NCBI GenBank assembly: GCA_963833575.1
Contig: CAWHXY010000007.1
Location: 631,273-695,272 of the forward strand
DNA: 64,000 nucleotides
Origin: Candidatus Bathyarchaeota archaeon
Lineage (GTDB): Archaea > Thermoproteota > Bathyarchaeia > Bathyarchaeales > Bathycorpusculaceae
Direction: 5' to 3'
Shown here: positions 17,047 through 31,929 of the stretch, one piece after another
How positions within the stretch are numbered: position 1 is the stretch's first letter
How the letters are laid out: each line of letters begins with the position of its first letter
Translations under genes and position numbers: made by a program
Notes under the pieces: model-generated
What the model was told of the DNA's origin: nothing
The model's input: the letters and a program-made list of their open reading frames with translations, nothing else
Database searches by the model: none

Positions 17047-17129
17047 TCTAATTTATTGTCTTTGAAAAGTCGCTGTTTTTTTAATTTAGTTTTTTAAAAG
17101 TATTTTCTTCGATTATAAAATTACGGCCA

Positions 17130-17972
17130 TTAAGTTTGACATTTAGGGCAAACGAATACTTTGCCTTCTCCAAGACTCAACTCTTGTATAGGCGAGTCGC
17201 AAACTGGACAGTTCTTCTTTCTCAGGTTCGGACCCATTTTTGTTACATATTGGCCTTTATTCTGATATAAGTCTAAGAACTGAGTTTTCCCGTTCAACCT
17301 AAGTCTTTCTCGAATTACAAGATTGACCGAGTCGAAAAGGGCTTTCCTCTCATTCAAATTCAAATCAGATGCCTTCCTATTTGGGTGAAGTTTCGCCCTG
17401 TATATTATATCTTGAAAAGCGCTGTTGCTCAGCCCTACCAAGACGGCGTCTTTCCCAACGAGCTCAGGTTTGAGCGCCCGGTTATTTTCTGATAGAAGCC
17501 TTGAAAAACGCTCGAAAGTGAAGTTCTCGTCAATAGGTGAGAAAACAGCATTGTTAAAATCTCGTTTGAAAACGTAAGAATCCATTAGTTCAGCATCCTT
17601 CAGCACCCTCATACCGCCCATATTGGTAAATCTAACCGTCAACGCGGTTTCGTCAGAAAAATCTATCTTTAAGTGAAACTTCTCTGGAACAGTCACTTCA
17701 GACAAGTGATAAAAAATCTCGCCGCCGTATTCCGGGTTAAGAATCATATTCATCCTCTCATCAAGCTTCACAAGTATAGAGTTGCCCCTTGAAATGACAG
17801 ATTCAACTTCTCTATTCACAATCTGATCAAAAGATTTGTTATCTCTGTTAATGAACCCAATTTTCTGCAATTTTTCGCAATCACGCAATCGATAACCCTT
17901 GATGCGTTTGCCCTTCAACTCTTTGTTCATCTGATCCGCAAGAATCTTTGCTTCCGGAAGCTCAATACTCAT
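17130..17972 (-). CDS. Fpg/Nei-family DNA glycosylase-like protein (H2TH plus zinc finger)
   Basis: ELPE, H2TH region (GL...DIIYRAKLHP), C-terminal CPVC...CPKCQ. Confidence 0.85.
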   Translation of the reverse strand: MSIELPEAKILADQMNKELKGKRIKGYRLRDCEKLQKIGFINRDNKSFDQIVNREVESVISRGNSILVKLDERMNMILNPEYGGEIFYHLSEVTVPEKFHLKIDFSDETALTVRFTNMGGMRVLKDAELMDSYVFKRDFNNAVFSPIDENFTFERFSRLLSENNRALKPELVGKDAVLVGLSNSAFQDIIYRAKLHPNRKASDLNLNERKALFDSVNLVIRERLRLNGKTQFLDLYQNKGQYVTKMGPNLRKKNCPVCDSPIQELSLGEGKVFVCPKCQT

Positions 17973-18145
17973 CTAAACCCTCCTAAGCACAAGTTCTTGT
18001 AACCAACCCACTGTTTAAAACATTTATGCATTGAACGACAAGCCTAAGCTCCACAAAAAATTTTCTAAAGGAATACTATTCTCTGCTCCATTTGCTTATC
18101 CGCTAGTAATTAGAAAATTAGAAACGAAATAATATCGATGAAATT

Positions 18146-18271
18146 CTATCTGGATTTTTGTCTTTCCAGTCTGGCGGACTTCTTATCCTTGCGTTTAGCA
18201 TCTCTATCTTTCTTCTTCTGAGGCTGAGGTTTTCCTCGATCTTGTTCTCCAGTTTCTCCTCTTTTTGACAT
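18146..18271 (-). CDS. Small basic hydrophilic protein, 41 aa (MSKRGETGEQDRGKPQPQKKKDRDAKRKDKKSARLERQKSR)
   Basis: Below the ORF-track cutoff; AGGAG ribosome-binding site about 8 nt upstream of the ATG. Confidence 0.55.
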   Translation of the reverse strand: MSKRGETGEQDRGKPQPQKKKDRDAKRKDKKSARLERQKSR

Positions 18272-18380
18272 TTAAGTTCTCCTTCTTACAAAAGAAATGA
18301 GCTAGTCTCATTCTTGAACCTATCTTTCTTTCTTGCTATGCTTTGTGATTTTATTATTTTTAACCTCAAGAAATCTACCG

Positions 18381-19031
18381 TTACAAGTTTTGAAGGTATT
18401 TGATTAGCCGTTGCAAGTCTCCGGTTTTTTTCATCTGCTCTTTTTGAAGCATTTCTATTATGTTAAATTTGATGTAGAGTCCGCCAGGAGGATACAGCTG
18501 ACGGGCGACTATGGTAAAGACTTTACAGTTTTCTTTTCCTATGACTTCTTCTTTAAATCGCCATTTATAGGGCGTTTTTGGTGGGAGTAACGTTTCAGAA
18601 AGAACGATAACTGCAAAATTCCTCACATTTGCAGTTGCTTCAAGCTCATTAAATTTAGCTCGCAACACCTTATTTTGGTCTTCTCGCTTTCCGTTTTCCA
18701 AAGTCCTTCCGCTGACAGCATTGTTCTTAATCTCTATGACCATCTTCACATTGTTAGACGGGTAGGTTTTTTGGTTTGGGTCTACACCATTCTTTAAGAG
18801 AAGCAGATCATTTTTGATTTTAGATCCTTGGATTGTGACGTTTGGAATCGTTGAAAGATTAAGATTTCTTTTCATTAAGTGATTTCGGATGACTATTTCC
18901 GTTGAATTTCCAGATTTCTCGCGAGCTGTTTTATCGTTTTTTTGTTTCTGAAATTCTTCGCTAACCTCAATTAGCATTGTGTATTCTTCATCGCAAGCAG
19001 TTAGTATTGGTTTTTTGGAATAATTTGGCAT
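18381..19031 (-). CDS. Hypothetical PD-(D/E)xK nuclease-like protein
   Basis: G..TE helix, KNDLLL strand and VIEIKNN (E..D..ExK pattern). Confidence 0.55.
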   Translation of the reverse strand: MPNYSKKPILTACDEEYTMLIEVSEEFQKQKNDKTAREKSGNSTEIVIRNHLMKRNLNLSTIPNVTIQGSKIKNDLLLLKNGVDPNQKTYPSNNVKMVIEIKNNAVSGRTLENGKREDQNKVLRAKFNELEATANVRNFAVIVLSETLLPPKTPYKWRFKEEVIGKENCKVFTIVARQLYPPGGLYIKFNIIEMLQKEQMKKTGDLQRLIKYLQNL

Positions 19032-19296
19032 GAATAAAATATCACAATTATAAATTAAAAAAACTAACGTAATTCTCTTTGCAAACTCCGCAACAAAAAC
19101 CTTGGGCAGTTTGTCTTTCAGCTTTCTCCTTTGATAAGAGACCTATTTTATTCTTATTAAATGAAAATTCCAGATGATCTAAATGCCGCGGACGTGGCGC
19201 AGTAAACCTTTTTTCATTTTTTGTCGACTATTTTCCATTGGGCTTTTTCAAATGGTTTTTATGTGAGACTGTCCTAAATACGAGTGGTGTTTTGTA

Positions 19297-19578
19297 ATGG
19301 TTGAAGATTTTGAACAAGACGATTTCGACATGATTGACCCATCAGCCAAAAAAGTTCTTGTAGCACTTTCCCAATTTGAGAAAGGTCTCTTGGTGACGGT
19401 GGACCTCTTACACAAAAAAACAGGTTTAATGCCTGAAGCCCTAAACGACGCAGTGCGACACCTGACAAAATCCAAACTCATCGACGTACCTGAGCTGGCA
19501 AAAAAACATGGCCCCTACGATTTCAACACCGTCGAAATAACCGACTTCGGAAGGCAAGTGCTAGCGAAATTCGGATAA
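19297..19578 (+). CDS. Small winged-helix-like protein
   Basis: L.KKTGL..EAL..AV..L....LI and ITDFG wing motif. Confidence 0.6.
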   Translation: MVEDFEQDDFDMIDPSAKKVLVALSQFEKGLLVTVDLLHKKTGLMPEALNDAVRHLTKSKLIDVPELAKKHGPYDFNTVEITDFGRQVLAKFG

Positions 19579-19780
19579 AACATTACAACTAAGCCCTCAT
19601 CTTAACTAGCAACGATACTTTTCTTTTTTTAAGAATAAACAAAATATAGAGATAGTCCCTATACAGCGCGCGCTGTCTGGAATGTTTGGAGGTTATGGCG
19701 GCGTCATCTTAATTATTGCGCGAGCTGAATTCTAAGTCGATGTTTTTGTAGCTTATTTGCTAAAATAGCTGATAAAACAA

Positions 19781-19846
19781 GCCTGATTTGTCAAAAGGAG
19801 AAAAGCGCGGGATGTTAGGTTTACATTCACGTTTAAATTTCACTCG
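19781..19846. repeat. tRNA-Ser-3'-end-derived att-like site, degenerate
   Basis: gcgcgggatgttaggtttaca-ttcacg-tttaaatttcactcg, with flank ctgatttgtcaaaaggag similar to that of the 23.3 kb copy. Confidence 0.75.
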
Positions 19847-20034
19847 AAAAAGTTAGGAGTCCCCTTAACCTGAATTGGATCGCCACCATTTTTCAGTGAT
19901 AATAACTATTCTATGAAATAGCTCGACGTCTCGCGAGTGTAAATTGCCTGTAAAAGAAAATAGTTGGACTTAAACTCTTATCTATAGGTTCTTTGGAGTT
20001 ATTTAGATCCGTTTTACATGGATTGCGCGAAACG

Positions 20035-20847
20035 CTATATATCGGCTCTTTCCGTGATCTCGGCGCCTTCGAACACAAAAAGCTTGGGTTTGCCCCCTTC
20101 TATCTGCACGAAGGTATTATGGATAGGTGAGGTTGTAACCCATGAGCCGGTATTTGCGAGGTTCTCGTCCTTGTTCACGAAAGGTCTGTGAGTATGCCCA
20201 AAGATAAGAATTTCCTTTGGCTGAACTGTGGAACACGCCTTCTTTTCTACACCCTTCAGGTTTTCTATAAGCCTCTGCTCAGGACCTAGCTGCAGCATCT
20301 CAGCTAATCGGTGTTTTCTTGCCCGATCAATAACGTTGAAAAAGCGAGATAGGTCACTATCGTAACGACCAAGAGCAGCCCAAATGTTAGTATCGCGGTC
20401 GCCCTTCTGATCAGACATTGAGTGGCAGAGCGATTCCATAAAGTGCTCCCTCTGCATTTCGTCGAACTCCCAGCCGTGAACAAATCTGCAACTTATACCG
20501 TTTTGCTGAAGCGTAAGATCCTTAAGGAAGTCGATGGGGTATCCTCGGCTTTGTAGCTTGCGGACGTGGAAATCATGGTTTCCTGCGACGTAATAGACAC
20601 GCATCTTTTTTTGTAAACTGATAATCAGATCGAGAACGTCATGGTTCTCGAGGAAAATGCCTGATGAATCTCGTCTCCACATGTCAACGATGTCGCCGAG
20701 AAGCACCAGATCTGTAACACTAGGGTCGGATTGAAGTTTTTCGATAAAGCGGATAAATGCAGCTTTGTCAGAGGAATCGAATCCTAGATGTAAGTCCGAA
20801 ACAGCAATAATCGACAAATAGTATTCTCCCAAAATCCAATTAAACAA
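20035..20847 (-). CDS. Calcineurin-like metallophosphoesterase (LpxH-like)
   Basis: SDLHLG, LGDIVD, GNHD, HG, GHTH, NTGSW. The start is probably the TTG about 10 codons in. Confidence 0.9.
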   Translation of the reverse strand: MFNWILGEYYLSIIAVSDLHLGFDSSDKAAFIRFIEKLQSDPSVTDLVLLGDIVDMWRRDSSGIFLENHDVLDLIISLQKKMRVYYVAGNHDFHVRKLQSRGYPIDFLKDLTLQQNGISCRFVHGWEFDEMQREHFMESLCHSMSDQKGDRDTNIWAALGRYDSDLSRFFNVIDRARKHRLAEMLQLGPEQRLIENLKGVEKKACSTVQPKEILIFGHTHRPFVNKDENLANTGSWVTTSPIHNTFVQIEGGKPKLFVFEGAEITERADI

Positions 20848-20982
20848 TTATAATATAATAGCTTTCTTGTTTCATATTTTCTTAACTATCTCGCGGGTAA
20901 TTTAAACAATAGACCTGAGGCGGTAAGCCATAATTTCAGATGATAATTTGGAAATAATTATTAAAAATAAGTTCAGAAATAG

Positions 20983-21040
20983 GCTGAATTTGGAAATGGC
21001 GCGGGATGTTAGATTTACACCCACGTTTAAATTCCACACG
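20983..21040. repeat. tRNA-Ser-3'-end-derived att-like site
   Basis: gctgaatttggaaatggcgcgggatgt is identical to the tRNA-Ser 3' end plus its flank, followed by tagatttaca-cccacg-tttaaattccacacg. Confidence 0.85.
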
Positions 21041-21187
21041 GAAACCATGTAGAGAAAAATCGGTGTGTAATATTGAATTTATACTTTCTCTCTCTATAAA
21101 ATTCAGCAATAAAGTCAAGAAGCCTCTTGCCGATGCCGATTCCCTGAAAGTCAAGCAAAACCACAAGCCTACTTATGCGAAAATGGT

Positions 21188-21967
21188 CTATTTTTCTGTG
21201 GTTTGCAGAAATAGAATTTTTCTTATTGCTTCTATACCTTTAGTGGTTATGATATAATCGCCTTTGTTGTCCTCTTGGGCTATCAGCTTTGAATTAAGAA
21301 GCTTTTTGAGATGAAAAATAAGGTGACCTCCTTTCAAGGTCATAATTTGGGATAATTTAGAAAAGTTCTTTTTCCCCTCATACAAACCGATGAGAATCTT
21401 AAGTCTTACAGGATTAGATAGTGGCTCAAGAAAGTTTTCAACGATAAAAGGAATATTTACTGTCTCTTGACTAGGTTTGTTGCCATTGGTTTTTTCGACA
21501 AGAACTATTGTTTGGAAGGCCCTCTTTTCTCTTTTTAGTTTCTTCTGAAAATTAGTTTGACAGCTCTCGCATTGAGTGTCCTTAGCTTTTTCCAGCCGGA
21601 TGCCTGCTTGCTTTATTCTTGCTTCCAGATCAGCCAAAGCCTCTTTTGATTCGCCTGACTTAATAATCAAAAGATTTTCAGCTAACTGTTCTCTAAAGAA
21701 TTCATGGCATTTTGCCCTTTTTTCACAATCAGCACTCAGTAGTCTATCAATGTCTTCACTAGCTTCTTCATTTAGGAGATCGGCGTATTGCATTAAGCGG
21801 TTTTGAGAGAGCACCTCTTCCACGGCACTTAACCGATCTTTTAGGATTACGCTTTCTATCCTGCCTAATTCGGCTTTTAGGCTAATAACTTCATGTATTA
21901 GTTCACAGAGAGAATTATTTACAGCCTCTTGATCCGTTTGTTCGGCTTTTTTGTTCATTATACACAC
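21188..21967 (-). CDS. ArsR-like regulator with C-terminal wHTH and Cys-containing N-terminal domain
   Basis: PLSNPVRLKIL, F..LS....LKGGHLIFHLKKL, DY.IT.KG; divergent from a flavodoxin. Confidence 0.85.
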   Translation of the reverse strand: MCIMNKKAEQTDQEAVNNSLCELIHEVISLKAELGRIESVILKDRLSAVEEVLSQNRLMQYADLLNEEASEDIDRLLSADCEKRAKCHEFFREQLAENLLIIKSGESKEALADLEARIKQAGIRLEKAKDTQCESCQTNFQKKLKREKRAFQTIVLVEKTNGNKPSQETVNIPFIVENFLEPLSNPVRLKILIGLYEGKKNFSKLSQIMTLKGGHLIFHLKKLLNSKLIAQEDNKGDYIITTKGIEAIRKILFLQTTEK

Positions 21968-22043
21968 TGCATTTGGTACATTATTATTACCTAAAACTAT
22001 ATAAAACTATTCCGTTTTTTTATCATAAAATAGAGGTATTAAA

Positions 22044-22484
22044 ATGCCAAAAGTATTAGTAGCGTATTATTCTAAAACTGGAAACACCAAACAAGTTGCT
22101 GAAGCCATAGCCGAAGGCGCAAAAAGTGTCAAAGGCGTCAATGTTGAAATAAAAAATGTTCAAGATATCAGTGCAAAAGAAGCAGTTGAAGCTGACGGAT
22201 TCGCATTTGGATCGCCAGCTTATTTTAGCATGATGTCAGGTCCATTGCTGACTTTGCTTACAGAACTTTACTTTGTACGCGATAAATTAGCTGGTAAAAC
22301 TATGGTTGCATTTGCGACCGGAGGCGGCAGCCAAACGAAGACCACCGCAAACATCGAAAGCGTGCTCAAAGCCTTCAATCCAAAGCTGATTCTCCCAGGA
22401 CTAGCAATCGGTAACGCAATCTCAGAAACCGATAAACAGCAAGCAAAACAACTAGGCGAGAAATTAGCCAAAGCCCTCGCTTAG
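22044..22484 (+). CDS. Flavodoxin/WrbA-like protein
   Basis: YYSKTGNT, GSPAY, AFATGG. Confidence 0.9.
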   Translation: MPKVLVAYYSKTGNTKQVAEAIAEGAKSVKGVNVEIKNVQDISAKEAVEADGFAFGSPAYFSMMSGPLLTLLTELYFVRDKLAGKTMVAFATGGGSQTKTTANIESVLKAFNPKLILPGLAIGNAISETDKQQAKQLGEKLAKALA

Positions 22485-22549
22485 GAAAAATCTTAGCAAA
22501 TGCAAACTACTATTGCTGTTCAACCATCCTTTTTTTATAAAAAACCTAG

Positions 22550-23074
22550 CAGAATACCTGCCGCGGTAGCGGCAGGATGAATGCGTCCCACAAATTCTTT
22601 CTTTGCCCTACTCTGATAGGTCTGTCATTATTGGAAGAGGAGGTGAGAGACCTGGAAAAGGCAAGGGCGTGTGCTTTCCAAGCCAATTATCACCTCATCT
22701 GGGCAGTTAAATACCGGCGTAAGGTACTAGTCGCCCAGTTGAGGTTAGGCTTTTGGAAGTACTTAAAATGATTGTTGAAAACCATGGCTATCAGTTGCTG
22801 GCTGCTAAGGTTCATGATGGCGATCATGTGCATTTGTTTGTTTCTGCTCCGCCAAAGATGTCGATTCCTGCTATGGTGAGTGTTTTCAAATGTGTTTCTG
22901 CTAAATTGCTGTTTGAGGAGTTTGCGCAGTTTAAGTTGTGGCTTTGGGGTGGACATTTGTGGTCTGAGGGCTATGCTGTTAGGACTGCTGGTTCGGTGCC
23001 TGGCTGGAAAATAGAGGAATATATCAACAGAGCCTAAACGTGGATGCTCGCCCCGGAAGGGGCGAGTAGTTCAC
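22550..23074 (+). mobile_element. IS200-type element (tnpA only) with subterminal hairpins
   Basis: Left hairpin cctgccgc-ggta-gcggcagg (22557-22576) and right hairpin ctcgcccc-ggaa-ggggcgag (23047-23066) followed by TTCAC. The left boundary is approximate. Confidence 0.85.
22643..23037 (+). pseudogene. tnpA: Y1 HUH transposase TnpA, frameshifted near 22733
   Basis: YHLIWAVKYRR in one frame; DHVHLF, LWSEGY and EYI in the next. Confidence 0.88.
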
Positions 23075-23298
23075 TTTTTTGACTAGTGCACCACACTATA
23101 ATATCAGCTCCACATCACTTAATATCGGGAAAGGTAAAACGCTTGTAAAAGATTCCATCTCCGACTAAAATATTTTAAAAGTGCTGAGGCATGTGCAACT
23201 TAAACGAAAAGCCATTTTATACGATAAACTGAGAAGTATTAATTAATTCTTTAGCGTTTATTGAAGCCTTATTTGCGTAACTAACCAAGAATATAGTT

Positions 23299-23361
23299 CT
23301 AATTGGCAAAAGGAGCGTGGCGCTGGATGTTTGATTTACACCCACGTTTAAATTCCACACG
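23299..23361. repeat. tRNA-Ser-3'-end-derived att-like site
   Basis: tggcgctggatgtttgatttaca-cccacg-tttaaattccacacg; gatttacacccacgtttaaattccacacg is identical to the 21.0 kb copy. Confidence 0.85.
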
Positions 23362-23396
23362 AGAGAGCATAGCGCAAATCGACGTAGTAAAAGACT

Positions 23397-23960
23397 TCAA
23401 GGCGATGGATATTCGGGCGGATAGAGCCAGCGGCGGAGTAGTTTCGTTAGCTGAGGCATTGCGAAATAAGTCAGCCCAAGCACCAGAATAATCGTAATCA
23501 CGAGGTTGCTTGCGAGCAAAGACCAAGAGCCGATGATGGGGTTAAGAAAGAAATTTGCGACTAAGCTTATCATGTAAGCGGCCGCGAAAGTTACAAGAGC
23601 CATCTTCCAGCGTGGAGGAGGCTTGATCACCTCGAGTTTAGGTAAGGCAAACCATGTTTCAAGCCCAGTGGCACTCGCGTAATTCGGAGTGGAATAGCTG
23701 TTTACTTCTTCGAGCATTTTTGTTCTATTCTCCGATTTTTGCCAGTTCTCCAATGAAGACTTGTCTTTGAATCTGGTAATAATGTATCGCCTGCCAGATT
23801 TGCTGCCACCTGGAGCAATAACGGTTGTATTTAGATAGCCTGGAGCCTTCTTCTTAATTTCCAAAAAACGTCTATGCCACTCATCATAATCGGCTTCCCT
23901 ACCAACCCTTATCTCTCTGCTAATAATCTCTGTGACTCCAATAGCTTCATCTATCACCAT
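23397..23960 (-). CDS. Antibiotic biosynthesis monooxygenase (ABM) domain membrane protein
   Basis: PGY, F.....L..W..S..R, TGLETWF, PPRWKMAL, two TM helices, LLRRWL. Confidence 0.85.
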   Translation of the reverse strand: MVIDEAIGVTEIISREIRVGREADYDEWHRRFLEIKKKAPGYLNTTVIAPGGSKSGRRYIITRFKDKSSLENWQKSENRTKMLEEVNSYSTPNYASATGLETWFALPKLEVIKPPPRWKMALVTFAAAYMISLVANFFLNPIIGSWSLLASNLVITIILVLGLTYFAMPQLTKLLRRWLYPPEYPSP

Positions 23961-24015
23961 TTTTCAACTTCACTCTTATTGACTAATAAAACAAGACATT
24001 TTCACAAGATAAGCA

Positions 24016-24606
24016 CTATTTTTTGAGCGTAGCTTCTATTGCCGTCTTGATGCTAACGTCTTTTCCTATGGGGAAGCCGCCCGTTTCATTCTCAAGATCA
24101 GTCAACAATCCGAAGTCTTTTCGGTTGACTTTCGCTCTTGTTTGAAACGCCACTCTTGTGTTTCCCCATGGGTCTTGGACAACGCCACTAAATTTTAGTG
24201 CAGCGATAATCTTTTGAGTTATTCCACGTATTGTAAAATCGCCCTCGACTGTGAAGCTGCCTCCCGGCTCGACTTTCATTCCGGTACTGGAAAAAGTCAT
24301 TTTCGGATATTTCTGTACATCAAAAAATTTTGGGCTCCGAAGGTCCGCGTCGCGTCCTACATGATGCGTATCGATACTGGCTGTTTCTACGCTAAACTCA
24401 AAACTTGACAATAACGGTTCATCGGCTATCCCGATCTCACCAAAAATCGAGTTAAAACGATCCCTAACTTGACCCACTATTAGATGCTGCACAGAAAATT
24501 CCGCGAAACTATGTACAGGGTCAACGACATACTCACCTGCTGGAGGCAACGGGTTCCCAAAATACACGCGCGAATTATCTCTTATCTTATTCATACGAAT
24601 TAACAT
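24016..24606 (-). CDS. YceI family (polyisoprenoid-binding) protein
   Basis: DPVHS..EFSVQH, SIDT...RD.DLRS..FFD..KYP, DPWGN, NRKDFGL. Confidence 0.9.
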   Translation of the reverse strand: MLIRMNKIRDNSRVYFGNPLPPAGEYVVDPVHSFAEFSVQHLIVGQVRDRFNSIFGEIGIADEPLLSSFEFSVETASIDTHHVGRDADLRSPKFFDVQKYPKMTFSSTGMKVEPGGSFTVEGDFTIRGITQKIIAALKFSGVVQDPWGNTRVAFQTRAKVNRKDFGLLTDLENETGGFPIGKDVSIKTAIEATLKK

Positions 24607-24700
24607 CGCCCTTTCGGTTTGTTTTTCTATTTACCGACTTTTCTAAAATCAAAAGTCATTACTCACAGGTATTAAATATATAGTTAGCCTATTCTAACTT

Positions 24701-25405
24701 ATGGCAAAAGAAACGAAAGCAAAAATCATGGTGACCAAGGACGGCCCTTATCTCGTAAGTGGTAGTTTACCAATTGATAAACAGATAATTGGAATAGGAA
24801 AAGAAGGCGAGCCTGAAAAATGGATCCAAGGCAAGAAAGTGCCTGCTGGCGAAACCTGCGCATTATGTCGCTGCGGTGAGTCAAAAAGCAAACCATTCTG
24901 CGATGGCACCCATGGCAAAATTAAGTTCAATGGCACGGAAACTGCAAGCAAAAAAACACGTGACAAACAGGCTAAAGTCATGGATGGACCAACTTTGAAG
25001 CTGGAGGATGTTCCCGCGTTGTGCGCAGCTGCTAGATTCTGCCACAGAGGAGGAGGAACCTGGGAACTAACACATCACTCTGACGATCTAAAAGCCCGCG
25101 AGTTAGCTATCGAAGAAGCATGCCAATGTCCATCAGGACGACTCGTTGAATCTGACAAAAAAACCGGGAAAGTTTTCGAAAAAGAATTTGTAAAGTCAAT
25201 AAGCCTCATAGAGGACCCACAGAACAAGGTAAGCGGTCCAATCGGGCTCAGAGGTGGCATACCGGTGGAATCTTCAGATGGAACTACCTATGAAGTTCGG
25301 AACCGCCAAACCCTTTGCAGATGCGGCAAATCCCAGAATAAACCTTTCTGCGACGGCTCTCACATTGACGAAGGCTTCAATGACGGCGACGAATCTCTAA
25401 AATAA
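24701..25405 (+). CDS. CDGSH iron-sulfur domain protein (two CDGSH domains plus a central ferredoxin-like domain)
   Basis: LCRCG.S..KPFCDG(T/S)H twice; CPSGRL. Confidence 0.9.
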   Translation: MAKETKAKIMVTKDGPYLVSGSLPIDKQIIGIGKEGEPEKWIQGKKVPAGETCALCRCGESKSKPFCDGTHGKIKFNGTETASKKTRDKQAKVMDGPTLKLEDVPALCAAARFCHRGGGTWELTHHSDDLKARELAIEEACQCPSGRLVESDKKTGKVFEKEFVKSISLIEDPQNKVSGPIGLRGGIPVESSDGTTYEVRNRQTLCRCGKSQNKPFCDGSHIDEGFNDGDESLK

Positions 25406-25451
25406 AATAGACGAGAAATAGCGCCCAAAGAAAAAGAGAGGGCTTAAGGAT

Positions 25452-25790
25452 TTACTCTTTTGTAGTAAGTTCCTTAAGCTGTTTTTTGTTTAAGCCAACA
25501 TGTGGCTCTGCGTCTACGCGCTTGTGCACTTTTCCTTTCTTGAACATTATCACTGTCGGATAGTATTCTATTCCGTATTCTTCGCAAACATCAGGCTCTT
25601 CATCAACAATGACGCTAAGGCACTCTTCCGGATTGCTCTTTGAATACTCTTCAAATATTGGCAAAAACTCCCGGGAAAACGGGCACCAGGTCGCATAGAA
25701 CAGCACAACCGCTTTGTCTTTACTGTCTAACTTCTCGTGAAAAATACTTTTCTTTTTGTTCTCAGTTGTAATTTTTTTACGTGCGCTCAT
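25452..25790 (-). CDS. Thioredoxin-like protein (WCPFS, CxxS type)
   Basis: FYATWCPFS and YPTVIMFK.G. Confidence 0.85.
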   Translation of the reverse strand: MSARKKITTENKKKSIFHEKLDSKDKAVVLFYATWCPFSREFLPIFEEYSKSNPEECLSVIVDEEPDVCEEYGIEYYPTVIMFKKGKVHKRVDAEPHVGLNKKQLKELTTKE

Positions 25791-25792
25791 AA

Positions 25793-26659
25793 TTACATCA
25801 CACTGATTTTTTTAGGCTTAACTGGATTTTTAATTTTGATAAAAGTATCTGAATCTAGTTCTTCAAAGGCTTTATCGAGCTCTTCTTCGGTGTTCATAAC
25901 GATTGGTCCTCTCCACGCAACAGGCTCGTTTAACGGCTCTCCAGACACAAACAGAAACCGAGCGCCGCCTTTCGAGACTATTTTGACTAAATCACCTTCA
26001 CTAAAAACTGCACACTGACCCTGCAATATCTTCTTGGTCCCAATCTCTATTGATCCTTCAACGAGGTAGGCAAAAACCGTATCGTTCTTTGGTGTGGCGT
26101 GATTGAATATTTTTCCGGCATCGAGCTCTACATCGAAGTATTCTATGTGTATTGCTAAGTCGCGAACCGGTCCTTCCATTCCATCGACCTTGCCTGCTAT
26201 GACTTTTATTTTTGAGCCATCTTTTTCTAGCACTGGGATCTGTTGTTTTTCTATGCCGCGATATTTAGGGTCGATCATTTTCTTTTTTGCGGGCAGATTT
26301 ACCCATAGTTGGAAGCCCTGCATTAACCCATCGTATTTTTGGGGCATTTCTTGATGGATTATACCTGAACCAGCAGTCATCCACTGCACATCTCCAGATT
26401 TGATAACGCCCTTATTGCCCATGCTGTCGCCGTGTTCAACTTCGCCTGTCCACATGTAAGTGACTGTTTCCATTCCTCTATGAGGATGCCACGGAAAACC
26501 TAGAATGTAATCTTCAGGATCATCGGATCCAAAGTGGTCCAAAAGCAAGAAAGGATCAAGCGTAGAGTTATCATCGTTTCCCAAAACTCGTTTTAACTTA
26601 ACACCAGCGCCTTCTAAAGTTGTACGACGATTTAGAATCTTGTCAACCTTTCTCTCCAT
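25793..26659 (-). CDS. Pirin family protein
   Basis: DPFLLLDHF, HPHRGMETVTY, H.DSMG, MTAGSGIIHQE, GPIVMN. The ATG at 26659 follows a GAGGTGG ribosome-binding site. Confidence 0.93.
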   Translation of the reverse strand: MERKVDKILNRRTTLEGAGVKLKRVLGNDDNSTLDPFLLLDHFGSDDPEDYILGFPWHPHRGMETVTYMWTGEVEHGDSMGNKGVIKSGDVQWMTAGSGIIHQEMPQKYDGLMQGFQLWVNLPAKKKMIDPKYRGIEKQQIPVLEKDGSKIKVIAGKVDGMEGPVRDLAIHIEYFDVELDAGKIFNHATPKNDTVFAYLVEGSIEIGTKKILQGQCAVFSEGDLVKIVSKGGARFLFVSGEPLNEPVAWRGPIVMNTEEELDKAFEELDSDTFIKIKNPVKPKKISVM

Positions 26660-26696
26660 ACCCACCACCTCACGAAAAGAAAAAAATGGATTCTGT

Positions 26697-27143
26697 TTAC
26701 TTTGACAGCCCAAGTTGCTGCATAAAACCTACGACATCGTAGAATAGTCGCTCTTCGACGATTTCTCCGTTTTTCCATGTGGCGACAGTGCAAAATTCGA
26801 GCTTTGCCGTTTTTCCGGTTGACGGGATCATTTTTCCGTCGGGACCTTTCATCGATCCCTTCATAGTTACAGTCCAATCGGCTACAGTGCACGTGTAGTC
26901 TCCAGCGCCGAACATTATTTTGTATGGGCTGTTGACGAGTTTGTTGTCAAATGTCTTGAAGAACTCTACCGCTTCAACGTCGTGGGCATGACGTCCCATG
27001 GTAGGTAATGGTTGAGCTGGCCAGTACACTCTCACGTCTTCTCGGTGTCGCTTTTTGAAAGTTTCCCAGAGTGGGCTGTTTGGCCCCGCATTCCAAGCAT
27101 CATCAAGGGTTTTCATCAACTCAAGATTTTCTTTAACTCCCAT
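26697..27143 (-). CDS. SnoaL-like/ester cyclase (NTF2 fold) protein
   Basis: DDAWN, G..IP.TGK, W.NG.IVEE..FYD..GFMQQLG. Confidence 0.85.
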   Translation of the reverse strand: MGVKENLELMKTLDDAWNAGPNSPLWETFKKRHREDVRVYWPAQPLPTMGRHAHDVEAVEFFKTFDNKLVNSPYKIMFGAGDYTCTVADWTVTMKGSMKGPDGKMIPSTGKTAKLEFCTVATWKNGEIVEERLFYDVVGFMQQLGLSK

Positions 27144-27575
27144 AAAATTCGCCTACTAGTTGTTTGGCGTTATTGTTAATAAACGTGAGCAATTTTAAAA
27201 TCATAGCTTATTCCCTCTTCTTTGAAACGTGTTAAAATAGATATTTTTTAAGTTTGAGGCTATATCTACTGCGAGTTATTTGGGCGAGCGCTAGCTCCAC
27301 CTTGATTCAGTTTTCGCCCCCTTCACCCAAACGTTGTGAGAGCGGTTTCTAAATTGACATATGAACAAAGCAAAAAGAAACCTAAATGAAGTAATTTTGA
27401 GCAAGTTTGATCCTTCAGGAGTCTGAGTGTATACTTGGCTTACCCCAAAAAACTGTGGTCAGATTCGAGTTGGCGTGGCTTCAAACAGTGGACCGCATGG
27501 GGTAATGCATTTTTTCTGAGAAGAATTTAGGCTCAATTTCTAAAATTAACGTTAGTGGTGAGCTGAATTTGGAAA

Positions 27576-27662
27576 TGGCGCGGGATGTGGGATTTGAACC
27601 CACGCGGCCTTTCGACCACAGACTTAGCAGGCCTGCCCCCTACCAGGCTAGGGCAATCCCGC
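27576..27662 (-). tRNA. tRNA-Ser(GCT), CCA encoded
   Basis: Cloverleaf GCGGGAT...CT-GCT-AA, long variable arm, GGTTCAAATCC...ATCCCGC-G-CCA. Confidence 0.95.
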
Positions 27663-27850
27663 ACGGAAGAAATTCTTGAAATTATGCCAAGTCTGGATTA
27701 CTGTTTAGATTGTAACGGGTCGCATATTTTTGCTTTCTGTATTTTGAAAACTGTAAATTAAACTGAACAACACGAATGGTCTCGCTCTGAGTCTTGCAAG
27801 TGAAATCATTCCTACTCTATAGGTTGCCAGCTGGAAGATAGCTATTTAGA

Positions 27851-27930
27851 CGATTTAACTAATTTTGACTTTTTTTGACTTATTTTAACTTTTGTTGACT
27901 GATTTTGACTTTTCTCGACTCATCCTGCAG
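27851..27930 (-). repeat. 7 x 10-bp tandem array (AGTCAAAAAA-like on the minus strand) following CTGCAGGATG
   Basis: Plus-strand units cgatttaact, aattttgact, ttttttgact, tattttaact, tttgttgact, gattttgact, tttctcgact. Confidence 0.8.
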
Positions 27931-28205
27931 ATATTTCAAGCCCCAAAACAAGAAAACAACTCAAAACACAACCAAAAAAAATTGGAGAAAAACCAAAAGC
28001 GCACAAATCTCGCGAAGGACTCAAACTATTAAGCGTTAACAAGATGATAGTTTTTTTGAGCTGGGGTTGCCTTGCGGAAGGGGAATCAAATGGCTGTTCT
28101 TCGCTAAAATACCTATATTCATGAAAGTAGATCACATAGAAAAAGAAATAGTGAAATACTTCTAGTGTCAACAATAGAGATAGATATTTCTGGCAGGTTC
28201 TGGGA

Positions 28206-28637
28206 ATGGTACAAAAACTATCCAAAAAAGATATTGCATTCATGCAGCAATTGCCTGTGTGTCGATTAGCTACAGCAACTGAAGAATGCGAACCAATAGT
28301 GAGGCCTGTTTGGTCCGTTTTTGATGGCGTTTTTATTTATTTTGCATCTGATCCTGATACTCCAAAATTAGAACAGATAGAAAATAACCCCGAAGTATCC
28401 ATAGTTTTTGATGATTACGACCGAGAAAACTGGTCAAAAATCAGAGGTGTCCGTGTTCAAGGAGAAGCAACCATAATGTGGAGCGGAAAAGAATACGTTT
28501 ATGCGCATTCGCTTCTTAAAGAGAAGTTTCCTGAATACCAAACTGAATCGGGGGGATGGAAGGAAGGCGATGTGCCAATAATCAAAGTACTTCCTACGTC
28601 TTTCAATAAATGGCAACAAGGCAAGTGGACAAAATAA
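28206..28637 (+). CDS. Pyridoxamine 5'-phosphate oxidase-like (split beta-barrel) protein
   Basis: RLAT, P.VRPVW, K...I.NNP.VS...D, GVRVQG.A. Confidence 0.88.
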   Translation: MVQKLSKKDIAFMQQLPVCRLATATEECEPIVRPVWSVFDGVFIYFASDPDTPKLEQIENNPEVSIVFDDYDRENWSKIRGVRVQGEATIMWSGKEYVYAHSLLKEKFPEYQTESGGWKEGDVPIIKVLPTSFNKWQQGKWTK

Positions 28638-28683
28638 ATTGTACTCTCGACGAATCAAGACATGCAAAGGGGTCATAAATTAG

Positions 28684-29505
28684 TTATTTTTCGCCTTTAA
28701 TAATCCCTATGCGCCCTACCATGAATGGCAACTTCAGGGCCGCTGGGATAAACGATGAATTATGTGTTTCAACGAATTCTACTTTGGTTATTCCCCAGCT
28801 TTTTATCGTTGCAACCAACGTTTCAGGGTCACCATAGATTTGTTTGAGAAGGAAAAGATCTTGGAAAGCGAATTTTCCGCCTTTCTTGACTACGCGCAAA
28901 GCTTCACGAATTACCTCATGTTTGTCTTTTTTATCGCTGACTTCGTGGAAACAAAGGTTGCTTACTGCCGCATCAAAATATTCATCCTCAAAGGGCAGCT
29001 TTGAAGCGCTTGCTTTCTGAAACACGACTCGTTGAGCTACGCTTTCAACTTTAGCATTAGCTTCGCAGGTTTCTTTTGAGTATTCCCAACGTTCTCCCCA
29101 ATAATCAATCCCAGTTACCTGTGCCGTTATGAACTTTTTTGCCAGCTTTATAGATAAGACACCGTTTCCACAACCTATGTCCAAAGCTTGCCCTTCGCCG
29201 TTCCAGTCTAAATTTGTAACTACGGTCTCCCAAATTTGATTTTGGACGTTTCGACCCTTTGGCGAGAAAAGGTACCGCGCATAAGCAAAATACAAACTTA
29301 CAGCAAAGAACAGTAGAGAAGGAATTGCCAGCAACCAAAACAGAAAGTTAACAACAACGAATTCGTGCAACAAGAAAATTAATGCTAAGAACACAACGCC
29401 AAATATTCCAAATGAATAGATTAGTCGTTTTGAAACCCAATTACCGTAATCCGCCGGTTGATTCTTCTGGTTAGCCATATCTCTTGCCCATAAACAGTTA
29501 TGCAA
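28684..29505 (-). CDS. Membrane-anchored class I SAM-dependent methyltransferase
   Basis: Two TM helices, LDIGCGNG, LPF.D..FD..VSN..FH. The start may be MANQ. Confidence 0.9.
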   Translation of the reverse strand: MHNCLWARDMANQKNQPADYGNWVSKRLIYSFGIFGVVFLALIFLLHEFVVVNFLFWLLAIPSLLFFAVSLYFAYARYLFSPKGRNVQNQIWETVVTNLDWNGEGQALDIGCGNGVLSIKLAKKFITAQVTGIDYWGERWEYSKETCEANAKVESVAQRVVFQKASASKLPFEDEYFDAAVSNLCFHEVSDKKDKHEVIREALRVVKKGGKFAFQDLFLLKQIYGDPETLVATIKSWGITKVEFVETHNSSFIPAALKLPFMVGRIGIIKGEK

Positions 29506-29533
29506 GGAATTATAAGAATTAGTTTCTTGTGTG

Positions 29534-30298
29534 TTAAGGTGTTTGGTTGGCGTTATCAGTAGAATCTATCGTGTCATATACTTGGTTTGCAATGAGCGTT
29601 GCTCCTTCACTGTTAGGATGTATTCCATCTACAAAGTAACTACTGTTGTTCCCAAATGCATCATAAATGTCGATTATTGGCAAGTTCATTTGGTTTGCCA
29701 GATCATCTGTGTGTGGAATTATGGTATTTGACAAGTAGGCAGGGCTTAAATCTGAACTATCATTAAAAATCGGCGGTGAATCTGCGAGGTAAATTTGTGG
29801 AGTGCTTTGGAGACCCTCAAATGAAGTAATTAGTTTGGCATAATCAGCCTCAAAACTTTCATTATACTGGTGAAGAGACATGAGGTCATCATTGGTTCCA
29901 AGCATGATGATAACGATGTTGGGTTCGAAGTCTTGGGCAGTTTGGAATTCGGTTTGATTCATGTATGGCTTCCAAGAATTAAGCGAAACCGTTGAACCAC
30001 TTGATCCAAAGTTGCCTACTGTATAGTTGTCGCCAAGCATCCCTTGAAGATCAGACGGGTATCCACTAACTGCAGTAATACTGTCACCAACGCATGCAAC
30101 CCGAATAGGCTCACTCGGAGAAGAAGTGGAGAGTTCTGAGTTATGTGGATCAAAAATCTTGAAAATTGCCAGAGGTAACATAAGAATGACGATAGCAAGA
30201 GCAATTGCCATTAACTTTGTTTGCTTTTTCATGCTATCTACTCGATTGAAACAAGCCCTTATGTCATCCATTGATTTATCCATGTTGGTAAGAGCCAA
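29534..30298 (-). CDS. Secreted SGNH/GDSL esterase
   Basis: GDSIT, GNFG, LGTND, DGIHP. The true start is probably the internal MKKQ. Confidence 0.9.
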   Translation of the reverse strand: MALTNMDKSMDDIRACFNRVDSMKKQTKLMAIALAIVILMLPLAIFKIFDPHNSELSTSSPSEPIRVACVGDSITAVSGYPSDLQGMLGDNYTVGNFGSSGSTVSLNSWKPYMNQTEFQTAQDFEPNIVIIMLGTNDDLMSLHQYNESFEADYAKLITSFEGLQSTPQIYLADSPPIFNDSSDLSPAYLSNTIIPHTDDLANQMNLPIIDIYDAFGNNSSYFVDGIHPNSEGATLIANQVYDTIDSTDNANQTP

Positions 30299-30352
30299 GT
30301 CATTGCTTCAACAAGTAATTACGAATAACATTTGATTAGAGGATTTCTTTGA

Positions 30353-30395
30353 TGGCGCAGCGGGTTAGATTTGAACCAGGTTTAAATTTTACGCG
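30353..30395. repeat. tRNA-Leu-like 3'-end-derived att-like site
   Basis: tggcgcagcgggttagatttgaa-ccagg-tttaaattttacgcg. The left part resembles the tRNA-Leu 3' end; the right arm resembles the 19.8, 21.0 and 23.3 kb sites. Confidence 0.6.
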
Positions 30396-30517
30396 CATGG
30401 AAACAAATCGTTTTGTGTTGCTATGGTACCTGTTCCCCATAGTTTTGAAACCTTCAGATGACTTGAGCTCGACCGTTTTGTCTTGGAGTTTGCGAAGAGC
30501 GAAGAAAAAGCTCGCAC

Positions 30518-30964
30518 TTACCAAGCTCCTTCTGTTCCATGTATTTCAAAATGCTCATCTGTAGCGATATGGTTGAACGTCATCTGTAAAGAGTTGTGTG
30601 TGCCATCATTAGATAATGTGTAACGGTTAGGACTTTGTATGTAGTACTTCCAGACCAGCGAGATGTTTTCCGAAATTAAGTCAGTTGGAACTGTTATGTC
30701 GAAGAAAACAGTTTTTCTATATGACCCAACGAAATCAACTGAAACATACTTCAAATCAGTCAAAGATGAGTTAGATAAGTAAACCTTTGGTGCAGAATTC
30801 CAATTGGTACTAACAGTTATAATGTATGTCTTCTCTCCAACTGAAATAGGATAAGTGTATAATTTGCTCTCTGCGATTTCAAACCATAAGAGCCCACTTA
30901 TTATTGACGTGATAAGGATTGCTGCTATAACGGTTATTACTAATTTTCTTCTCTTCATAAGCAC
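30518..30964 (-). CDS. Membrane-anchored hypothetical protein
   Basis: N-terminal basic residues and TM helix, followed by a beta-rich domain. Confidence 0.7.
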   Translation of the reverse strand: MLMKRRKLVITVIAAILITSIISGLLWFEIAESKLYTYPISVGEKTYIITVSTNWNSAPKVYLSNSSLTDLKYVSVDFVGSYRKTVFFDITVPTDLISENISLVWKYYIQSPNRYTLSNDGTHNSLQMTFNHIATDEHFEIHGTEGAW

Positions 30965-31002
30965 CGATTAGTTGATTATTTTGACTATAAAGGTTTCAGT
31001 CT

Positions 31003-31038
31003 AAGTTTCTTGACTGCCCTTAGTCAAGGTTTCTTGAC
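31003..31038. repeat. CTTGAC-N8-GTCAAG-N4-CTTGAC palindromic motif, copy 2
   Basis: aagtttcttgactgcccttagtcaaggtttcttgac. Confidence 0.7.
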
Positions 31039-31145
31039 GATTCACCTTTTTATAAATCACACTAAAAAAAAGAAAGTTAAGCATAAAGAGTTTGCAGTAG
31101 TGGTTTTTTTAAAAGAAACTCCCGATAACTGGGGTTTGCATGTAG

Positions 31146-31230
31146 TGCAGAGGGTGGGATTTGAACCCACGAACCTCTACAGGATAGGCTCCTGAAGCCT
31201 ACGCCTTTGACCATGCTCGGCGACCTCTGC
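31146..31230 (-). tRNA. tRNA-Leu(CAG)
   Basis: GCAGAGG acceptor stem, loop TT-CAG-GA, long variable arm, GGTTCAAATCC. Confidence 0.93.
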
Positions 31231-31591: not shown

Positions 31592-31620
31592 AATTTTGCC
31601 TTCTTTTCAAATTTAAGGAG

Positions 31621-31694
31621 GGCCGGGGCAGGGATTTGAACCCTGGCAAAAGGCTCCACAGGCCTCTAGGCTACCAAGCTACCTCACCCCGGCC
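31621..31694 (-). tRNA. tRNA-His(GTG), G-1 encoded
   Basis: G-GCCGGGG acceptor stem, loop CT-GTG-GA, GGTTCAAATCC, discriminator C. Confidence 0.93.
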
Positions 31695-31929
31695 ACTTTT
31701 CGCTGACTTCAGCCTCTTTTCACGCTTGGGTGCAAACATTTACGTTTTCTCAGCAATATTAACTTGTCTTTTCAACGAAGGATTTCAATCACTGACACAG
31801 GCTAATTCCTTTAGCAATTAAGCCATTATAAAAGTGCGGCTAAAGGAGGTAACACCAAATTTTGATTGTTCTTCTGCAAGTACCTTTAACTTCAAGTTTT
31901 TCTCTACCTATGCATAGAAGGCCGATTGG

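Follow-up and report, generated by a model that had tools for sequence, protein, structure and literature searches.

Conserved tRNA-derived junctions border integrase-free gene blocks behind tRNA-Ser(GCT) in a Bathyarchaeia genome

Introduction

Tandem accretion at tRNA genes, together with loss of the integration genes, is described for streptococci as a three-step scheme that yields cis-mobilisable elements (CIMEs); the excerpts of PMC5704250 that set out this scheme cite Pavlovic 2004 and Bellanger 2011 on tandem accretion and CIMEs. Tandem mobile genetic elements (MGEs) and integrated elements without an integrase are also documented in archaea, and thaumarchaeal attachment (att) repeats have a median length of 17 bp (excerpts of PMC8371274 and PMC6563490). 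The locus analysed here, from a Bathyarchaeia genome (G000), consists of small gene blocks behind an intact tRNA-Ser(GCT) gene, bordered by copies of a junction of about 50 nt that begins with the tRNA 3' end. It lies in a stretch of 64,000 nt, hereafter called the window (G000:C7:631273-695272). Tandem accretion at a tRNA gene with loss of the integrase, as in CIMEs and archaeal integrated MGEs (iMGEs), is the nearest established model.

As in CIMEs, to judge from the excerpts of PMC5704250, one tRNA 3' end appears to have been reused, internal chimeric att sites are present, the integration genes would have been lost and att kept, and the newer elements would adjoin the target gene. Unlike CIMEs, the units here are far smaller (0.9-9 kb, often one to few genes) and the host is an uncultured archaeon; all three window units are without an integrase, and one conserved att arm of about 36 nt is carried by cassettes for different tRNAs. 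With archaeal iMGEs the locus shares tRNA 3' ends as presumed targets of a tyrosine integrase, short att repeats (the core here has 13 nt) and arrays formed by reuse of a site. In contrast, the iMGEs of PMC8371274 and PMC6563490, as excerpted, are whole proviruses, plasmids and cryptic elements, mostly with an integrase, and a genus-wide conserved junction around single-gene cassettes is not described in those excerpts. The ssrA islands of Dehalococcoides (excerpts of PMC3146451) likewise have one small-RNA gene as the integration site and varied cargo, and over long periods they contribute much of the diversity between strains; they differ in their transfer-messenger RNA target, in their bacterial hosts and in an integration module that is present in 16 of 31.

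In integrases of the Sulfolobus spindle-shaped virus (SSV) type, called 'suicidal' in the excerpts of PMC7253208, att lies at or inside the integrase gene; in genome G091 and metagenome contig L195 (see below) the integrase frame likewise starts in the tRNA-derived core, so that integration would part the gene from its upstream region. Unlike the SSV type, the borders of the window cassettes gave no int(N) or int(C) in tblastn searches of 14-36 kb with the five integrases of the genome, and a partitioned integrase was rejected as a candidate; integrase sequence follows the conserved arm in no site seen. She and colleagues are said to have described SSV-type integrases and gene capture in archaeal chromosomes in 2001.

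In outline the locus is also like an integron (a fixed anchor, small recombinase-free cassettes and a junction per border), and archaeal integrons were reportedly described by Ghaly and colleagues in 2022; unlike integrons, it is anchored by a tRNA gene, and neither an IntI nor an attC-type folded site nor a common promoter is in evidence. Nothing joining archaeal integrons or attC with Bathyarchaeota was found in the literature. Among the papers listed on Bathyarchaeota integrases and tRNA integration, no title or abstract opening mentions such arrays, and supplementary tables of the papers cited here may hold loci of this kind; the excerpts of PMC11697101 mention only a provirus island.

Materials and methods

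The assembly (2.75 Mb in 8 contigs, roughly 40% G+C) is 94% complete. The genus comparison set comprised 120 genomes, and tRNA genes were called with ARAGORN and Rfam. Breakpoints were surveyed over 114 distinct site contexts. Site position and spacing were counted at 12 tRNA-Ser(GCT) loci; two duplicates were dropped, L067 because of its overlap with L052 and L065 as another copy of L064. Coverage by Logan contigs was patchy: the best run held 27% of the sampled words, and the uncovered parts are uninformative.

Results

Anatomy of the junctions

The three co-oriented Ser-type junctions reported by an initial annotation of the sequence were recovered 3' of tRNA-Ser(GCT) (Table 1); on the + strand they read as the reverse complement of the tRNA 3' end. 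The anchor core is this 3' end, TGGCGCGGGATGT (+ strand, 27576-27588). It recurs at each junction, unchanged at 20997, with one change at 23318 and over 11 nt at 19805. A direct repeat of the tRNA 3' end therefore stands at every unit border with the tRNA gene left intact, as is characteristic of accretion arrays. Each junction comprises a 13-nt core, which covers CCA, discriminator and acceptor strand of the tRNA 3' end, then a T-arm-like stretch of non-tRNA sequence, then an arm, TTTAAATTYCACRCGA. The core is (T)GGCGCGGGATGT, with GCGCTGG instead at 23318; the stretch behind it is TTAGATTTACACCCACG, or TTAGGTTTACATTCACG at 19.8 kb and TTTGATTTACACCCACG at 23.3 kb. The arm has the form TTTAAATT(C/T)CAC(A/T)CG, with a longer form ending in CGA, and is non-tRNA sequence. 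The T-arm-like stretch departs from the tRNA identically in all copies, TTAGATTTACACCCACG against TGGGATTTGAACCCACG in the tRNA, a common change (TTTACA versus TTTGAA) that had been noticed correctly in the initial annotation.

A variant junction at 30353 lies 3' of tRNA-Leu(CAG), and its second and third parts are as in the Ser-type junctions. The Leu-like site is thus present, but it does not copy the resident acceptor: it differs from that of tRNA-Leu(CAG) by 2 mismatches, with a G discriminator and a CCA end, and no match to its acceptor part was found among the tRNAs of this assembly, intron-containing ones included. The 18-mer GTGGGATTTGAACCCACG that tRNA-Ser and tRNA-Leu were said to share is indeed common to both, but it is simply the T arm and is carried by several tRNAs of the genome. 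Beyond the window, one and the same module was found on several acceptor cores: Ser-GCT, Ser-GGA-like (e.g. L218), Leu-CAG (L021), Leu-TAG (L211) and Arg-CCT-like (L030, G016).

Two flank types precede the cores, as had been claimed, and each was found again in further genomes. The module of type A (...CTGAATTTGGAAA), about 115 nt long, also flanks the tRNA itself, here and in other genomes; its copies at 20901-21025 and 27480-27604 are 72% identical, and the flank at 27470-27575 is homologous to 20886-20996, to the tRNA flanks of G010 and G097 and to the flank that precedes the integrase in L195. Type B is TTGGCAAAAGGAGnnn, carrying TTGGCAAAAGGAG. The region of 20886-20907 and that of 19831-19858 form 28-nt inverted repeats (79% complementary), and cassette 1 is therefore bounded by inverted arms. 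Over 39 sites, an inverted arm copy was found 78-107 nt left of the core in nine and a direct copy in none (mean for shuffled motifs, 0.1).

Symmetry within the site is visible and weak. The parse into inverted arms around a 6-nt spacer that had been proposed, TTAGATTTACA / CCCACG / TTTAAATTCCA (11-6-11), matches at 7 of 11 positions, and a better parse, GATTTACAC / CCAC / GTTTAAATT, at 7 of 9 with a 4-nt spacer.

Conservation and distribution

The 19-mer CACGTTTAAATTCCACACG, with up to three mismatches, was found 3 times in the window against 0.03 expected, and 0 of 100 shuffles reached three. GTTTAAATTYYAC occurs five times genome-wide, each time after tRNA-3'-like sequence: four times in the window and once at C4:663315. 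The sites are widespread in the lineage; a 29-mer, again with up to three mismatches, was found at 51 places in 35 of the 120 genus genomes, and the reversed-pattern control gave 0. The exact pattern, searched in one genome for each of 185,579 species, gave 34 stretches, 32 of them titled Bathyarchaeota or Bathyarchaeia; the motif-bearing public records are metagenome-assembled genomes (MAGs) of Bathyarchaeota/Bathyarchaeia from peat, bog and soil, and the motif was present in 66 contig stretches of JGI metagenomes. The junction of about 50 nt is thus almost confined to Bathyarchaeia. Over 39 non-redundant sites, conservation is 1.3-1.6 bits per column across about 50 columns and falls at sharp edges to 0.05-0.1 bits in the flanks.

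The 12 tRNA-Ser(GCT) loci have 24 full sites, of which all but one share the orientation of the tRNA (23 of 24) and all but one stand 3' of it (23 of 24); an inverted site in G010 and the Leu-side site of the window depart from these rules. Sites are spaced by 0.9-9.0 kb, and arrays reach four sites (e.g. G116). In metagenome contigs that hold both a site and tRNA-Ser(GCT), the tRNA is on the expected side and strand in 8 of 8.

The fifth junction of the family in this genome (G000:C4:663315-663351, - strand) has an acceptor part closest to tRNA-Arg(CCT), with a short deletion, and 17 kb of surrounding sequence gave no tRNA. A perfect junction of the Bathyarchaeia type and a copy of the window's 874-aa gene (83% identical) occur in a 6446-nt record (L033/L063, G009:C238); the record is titled as a Candidatus Acidoferrum MAG although the genome is placed in the window's genus, and its naming or binning seems doubtful.

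Breakpoints in relatives and metagenomes

The surroundings of the locus recur across the genus: a PNPOx-family gene stands on the tRNA 5' side, and the distal backbone comprises a major facilitator superfamily transporter and a large sensor kinase-type protein. The content between tRNA-Ser and the distal backbone is variable. In G069 the backbone gene F2 is 213 nt from the tRNA and in G014 the backbone gene F3 is about 700 nt from it, so that both loci are empty or nearly empty; the locus of G087, with a Fic-domain gene 10 nt from the tRNA, is a third of this kind. Homology of the closest relative, G009 (83-86% identity), to the window stops at 17046 and restarts at 31858. In G012 about 150 nt separate the tRNA from the cassette that has the 93-aa gene and its B flank, and the window therefore holds three extra cassettes, inserted exactly at the 19805 core. 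The interval 17047-27575 is best explained as a hypervariable island behind tRNA-Ser(GCT), with a one-block counterpart behind tRNA-Leu.

Breakpoints in relatives and in metagenome contigs fall at junction edges, which supports the initial reading of the sites. Three context pairs have common right-hand cargo and unrelated left neighbours. In one of them, G091 and metagenome contig L166, the cassette has 97.5% identity across 847 nt and the break is exactly at the core TGGCGCGGG; a Leu-type pair, L211 and L021, breaks in the same pattern. In a further 31 context pairs the left flank is common and divergence begins right after the arm, and many of these merely reflect the common A module. The array of G016, which lies behind tRNA-Arg, has a wHTH-flavodoxin cassette (wHTH, winged helix-turn-helix) in which the B flank and the GCGCTGG core are kept and the left junction has an Arg-type acceptor. 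This case is like a break inside the junction in L201 and L040 (see below). A crossover at the core edge, as when attL forms in the classical way, would fit most breaks, but these two cases point to CCCACG or the start of the arm.

Logan contigs from related populations (four metagenome runs) end or switch at 19851/19854, 21003, 21040 and 27576, and one of them, at a depth of 2.5, links 21040 to the start of the 216-aa cassette (joint 21040 to 18394). These contigs are assembled and come from related organisms, so they demonstrate variable neighbours and not excision.

Integrases

No recombinase was found in the array, whether by Pfam search of its open reading frames (ORFs), by a genome-wide PF00589 scan or by tblastn of 14-36 kb of the window with the genome's five integrases. 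All five PF00589 matches lie outside it, and the nearest recombinase matches are on other contigs or at least about 470 kb away on C7. The statement that the blocks contain no integrase therefore holds, and any enzyme would have to act in trans. The units have no integration genes but keep att sequence at both ends, with a P' arm at each left end and an A or B flank at each right end, in line with the definition of CIMEs.

Tyrosine integrases of one family are present in 100 of the 120 genus genomes, with more than 400 matches. A long form (380-450 aa, zinc-ribbon N-terminus) is convergent with tRNA-Cys, Pro, Ala or Phe at 40-60 nt, and a short form (296-312 aa) is the only type seen at tRNA-Ser(GCT). 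In G091 a 7.2-kb element has a perfect 23-nt direct repeat of the tRNA end and a short integrase at its distal end, the reading frame of which starts in the repeat, behind a B flank. In contig L195 an inverted arm, an A flank and a core are followed by a short integrase; in G122 a short integrase comes directly after tRNA-Ser; and in G016 one follows tRNA-Arg, with a perfect 31-nt repeat 5.4 kb further on. Cassettes and integrase-bearing elements therefore have a common core and adjoin the same flank modules.

In this genome two integrase genes stand at contig starts (G000:C1:95-1542 and G000:C2:199-1704), beside tRNA-Cys and tRNA-Gln, and the C2 reading frame extends into the tRNA-Gln gene. 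The contig breaks at these genes suggest repeated or variable elements.

Origin of the array

The locus is, on balance, probably a tandem-accretion array of integrase-less, CIME-like cassettes, built by tRNA-targeted site-specific recombination with the enzyme provided in trans. Small circularisable cassettes without a recombinase gene would have been inserted repeatedly at the 3' end of tRNA-Ser(GCT). Their attachment region would consist of a P-type flank (A or B, at most about 115 nt long and frequently with an inverted arm copy at its end), the 13-nt core identical to the tRNA 3' end and the conserved 36-nt P' arm (the T-arm-like stretch and TTTAAATTYCACRCGA). A crossover inside the core or at its edge would keep the tRNA intact and move older cassettes outward, so that every internal junction would resemble attP. 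The enzyme would most likely be a tyrosine integrase acting in trans, and the short family (about 296-312 aa) on autonomous tRNA-Ser-core elements would be the best candidate; anatomy, conservation, distribution across the lineage and breakpoints at the junction edges are observed, and from them we infer which way the array grew, which enzyme acted and that cassettes are mobile at the present day. A single bounded consensus across species, one arm on different cores, inverted copies at both ends and near-identical cassettes in different contexts are arguments for a junction that works as a cis element, or did so until recently. By the same four observations, cassettes served in trans are favoured over inert fossils.

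Several observations weigh against this explanation. The att regions of the integrase-bearing elements are without the conserved arm motif beside their repeats. Copies at least 60% identical to the G091 integrase were found in 3 of 120 genomes, plus one pseudogene, against at least 35 genomes with sites, and the genome studied here has integrases of other types and no short integrase at tRNA-Ser. At eight loci of long-type integrase elements, 20 kb on one side of the tRNA held no arm motif (8/8) and no tRNA-end repeat at up to 6 mismatches in 31 nt. Assembled contigs gave no circular form, no excision product and no precise pair of empty and occupied sites within one population; the sole deletion-like joint, from 23263 to 27578, has one side of 21 nt and is unreliable. 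IMG/VR viral contigs gave 0 motif matches. In L201 and L040 (93% identity) the break is inside the junction, between CACG and TTTAAATT. Homologues of the phosphoesterase of cassette 1 have no flanking sites in either of the two genomes concerned (G020 and G096), and the wHTH-flavodoxin pair of cassette 2 is site-less in 3 of 4 other genomes. A composition check gave ordinary G+C for the island, with no anomaly.

In the main rival history, the blocks are what is left of autonomous proviruses or integrative plasmids at tRNA-Ser after loss of the integrase and of most other genes (gene capture), and the junctions are old attL sites that are immobile today. The missing integrase in the array, the absence of the candidate integrase from most site-bearing genomes and the lack of a circular copy among assembled contigs, or of a viral one in IMG/VR, speak for it, as do decayed junctions (L049 at 18051, L076 at 5917-5942 and, in the window, the one now missing between the 216-aa gene and the 93-aa gene); integrase loss after integration and tandem integration are both described for archaea (excerpts of PMC8371274). 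We nevertheless regard such inertness as rather unlikely. The junction stays near one consensus across 35 or more species, with unalignable DNA just a few bases off, and the common non-tRNA state TTAGATTTACA in all copies means that there was no independent decay from the tRNA, which bears out the initial view of the sites as conserved recombination-type junctions and not separately decayed tRNA ends. Moreover, the arm runs into an integrase gene in 0 of 114 contexts (integrases found by tblastn are at least 0.6 kb from the arm), near-identical cassettes occur in different contexts, and inverted arm copies are kept at both cassette ends. An alternative in which the junction is kept for a host function, as promoter, terminator or binding site, and arrays are shuffled by homologous recombination between 50-nt repeats appears improbable, although a host function may apply in single cases. 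In its favour, the arm has a TATA-like core (TTTAAAT, which makes a good TATA box in archaea), about 40 nt separate the inverted arm at 20886-20907 from the phosphoesterase start (20847) downstream of it, and one breakpoint lies inside the conserved block, as repeat recombination would give. A general promoter motif was, however, ruled out by its occurrence at only five sites in the genome, and most arms point towards converging genes, at their 3' ends. Compared with its shuffles, junction 2 forms a better fold on the tRNA-sense strand (z -2.97), but the type-2 variant (ATTCACG) breaks the hairpin with the loss of two pairs, so that the fold is not conserved and a conserved minihelix was rejected. 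The tRNA-derived core and the fixed place behind tRNA genes would also be left unexplained.

The likeness to integrons and to Xer/pdif sites that the initial annotation had drawn did not stand, and a true integron, or a module system served by Xer (pdif-like, or like the integrative mobile elements exploiting Xer, IMEX), is very improbable here. The small, often single-gene, co-oriented cassettes, terminal inverted motifs (TAAAC...GTTTA) that resemble integron core sites in form, and the 7 of 11 symmetric positions of the 11-6-11 parse would fit one. No IntI or other recombinase gene adjoins the array, however, and 147-150-nt units (20884-21030 and 23200-23349, both strands) gave no attC-like fold (z -0.56, -1.13, 0.02 and -0.61). 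The best match to archaeal XerA (NF040815) scored 69 bits against an NCBIfam cut-off of 220, which at 94% completeness of the assembly does not prove absence. Modules bounded by pdif sites have alternating site orientations, whereas all sites here are co-oriented and weakly symmetric; and the core is a tRNA 3' end. A casposon was also rejected, as the right-hand inverted arm is 78-107 nt from the next core and does not adjoin it; Cas1 was absent among the scanned ORFs of the window, the whole genome not having been searched for it.

Beyond the trans-served accretion array preferred here, a bolder proposal, which we hold to be doubtful, would make the arrays a native, tRNA-anchored and integron-like capture system of Bathyarchaeia. 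Recombinase-free cassettes would carry a modular site of about 50 bp in which the acceptor core sets the tRNA target, and the T-arm-like/arm module with its inverted partner would be the predicted recombinase platform; a lineage-specific tyrosine integrase acting in trans would insert, excise and shuffle the cassettes today, and tRNA genes would be the genus's main points of accessory-gene exchange.

Bathyarchaeia are abundant and uncultured, and gene exchange among them is little known; the conserved junction of 50 nt, which can be searched for, marks a hypervariable locus of accessory genes in 35 species or more. With it, cargo can be catalogued (here genes for redox, stress and regulation) and gene flow traced through metagenomes of peat and sediment. 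Mobilisation in trans, if real, would make the system an archaeal counterpart of bacterial capture of the CIME or integron type, whose target looks programmable through about 12 nt. Should the cassettes be fossils instead, the locus would still be a clear record of serial integration at one tRNA gene.

Cassette contents and neighbouring features

The features of the locus are listed in Table 1. The block contents are as initially described, the matches to an ArsR-like wHTH and to ABM being weak. An Rfam scan of 17-34 kb gave nothing besides tRNAs over threshold.

Table 1. Junctions, cassettes, flanks and tRNA genes of the locus (window coordinates)
Feature	Position	Strand	Content
Older island part	17047..19802		Fpg/Nei glycosylase, 216-aa gene, 93-aa wHTH-like gene with B flank
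Junction 1, type-2 variant	19803..19847	+	AAGCGCGGGATGT, TAGGTTTACATTCACG, arm TTTAAATTTCACTCGA; preceded by B-type flank TTGTCAAAAGGAG
Cassette 1, ~1.0 kb	19848..20885		Calcineurin-like phosphoesterase (Metallophos)
A-type flank of junction 2	20886..20996	+	Inverted arm copy at 20886-20907
Junction 2	20997..21041	+	Core TGGCGCGGGATGT, TAGATTTACACCCACG, arm TTTAAATTCCACACGG
Cassette 2, ~2.3 kb	21042..23317		wHTH (DUF7347/ArsR-like, weak), flavodoxin, IS200/IS605-type remnant
Weak inverted arm copy	23189..23205	-	GCATGTGCAACTTAAAC on + strand; 109 nt left of junction 3
Junction 3	23318..23362	+	Core TGGCGCTGGATGT, T-arm-like TTGATTTACACCCACG, arm TTTAAATTCCACACGA; preceded by B-type flank TTGGCAAAAGGAGCG
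Cassette 3, ~4.1 kb	23363..27469		ABM-like (weak), YceI, CDGSH/4Fe-4S, thioredoxin, pirin, SnoaL
A-type flank (P-arm-like module) beside tRNA-Ser	27470..27575	+	Degenerate inverted arm TTGGCGTGGCTTCAAAC at 27470-27486
tRNA-Ser(GCT)	27576..27662	-	Intact, CCA encoded; 54.9 bits in Rfam
Variant junction 3' of tRNA-Leu	30353..30395	+	TGGCGCAGCGGG, TTAGATTTGAACCAGG, arm TTTAAATTTTACGCG
tRNA-Leu-side block	30396..31144		148-aa protein, N-terminal membrane anchor
tRNA-Leu(CAG)	31145-31230	-	ARAGORN, Rfam
tRNA-His	31620-31693	-	ARAGORN, Rfam

In the older part of the island the junction between the 216-aa and 93-aa genes is lost, and the conserved backbone stops at 17046. The 216-aa gene is a single-gene cassette between two sites in G010 and G023 and has a one-sided site in G012 and G116; its distance from the tRNA varies among these four genomes. 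Its product (18381-19031, - strand) has no Pfam match, and a language-model search (Atlas) gave a weak lead to a MunI-type restriction endonuclease (0.90, 132 shared features). The 93-aa wHTH-like protein (19297-19578, + strand), also without a Pfam match, is present in 76 of the 120 genus genomes, usually as one copy. It is 84-96% identical in about 30 genomes in varied places, beside tRNA-Ser(GCT or TGA), His, Val, Pro or Ala, or beside junction sites, and about 220 nt of non-coding DNA 3' of the gene is also conserved (four genomes). It was considered as an element-borne factor and rejected: a tRNA lies within 1.5 kb in 8 of 30 loci and a Ser-type site in 8 of 30, and its contexts are many.

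The remnant in cassette 2 (22531-23078) is a frameshifted TnpA of the IS200/IS605 type with an HVHLFVS-type motif and G+C-rich hairpins at both ends; it is single-copy here, has at least four copies in G002 and at least three in G016, and reaches very high depth in two metagenome runs.

A Fic-domain gene recurs near tRNA-Ser in other genomes. It is 10 nt from tRNA-Ser in G087 (L153), between two full-length copies of tRNA-Ser(GCT) 1.2 kb apart in G060 (L156) and beside a full-length tRNA-Ser pseudogene within the array of G116 (L049); it adjoins the outermost junction in five or six further genomes. Just upstream of tRNA-Ser in the window, beside an ORF at 27920-28243 (- strand), seven 10-bp-phased repeats of the TTGAC(T) type (27855-27923) could be a protein-binding array.

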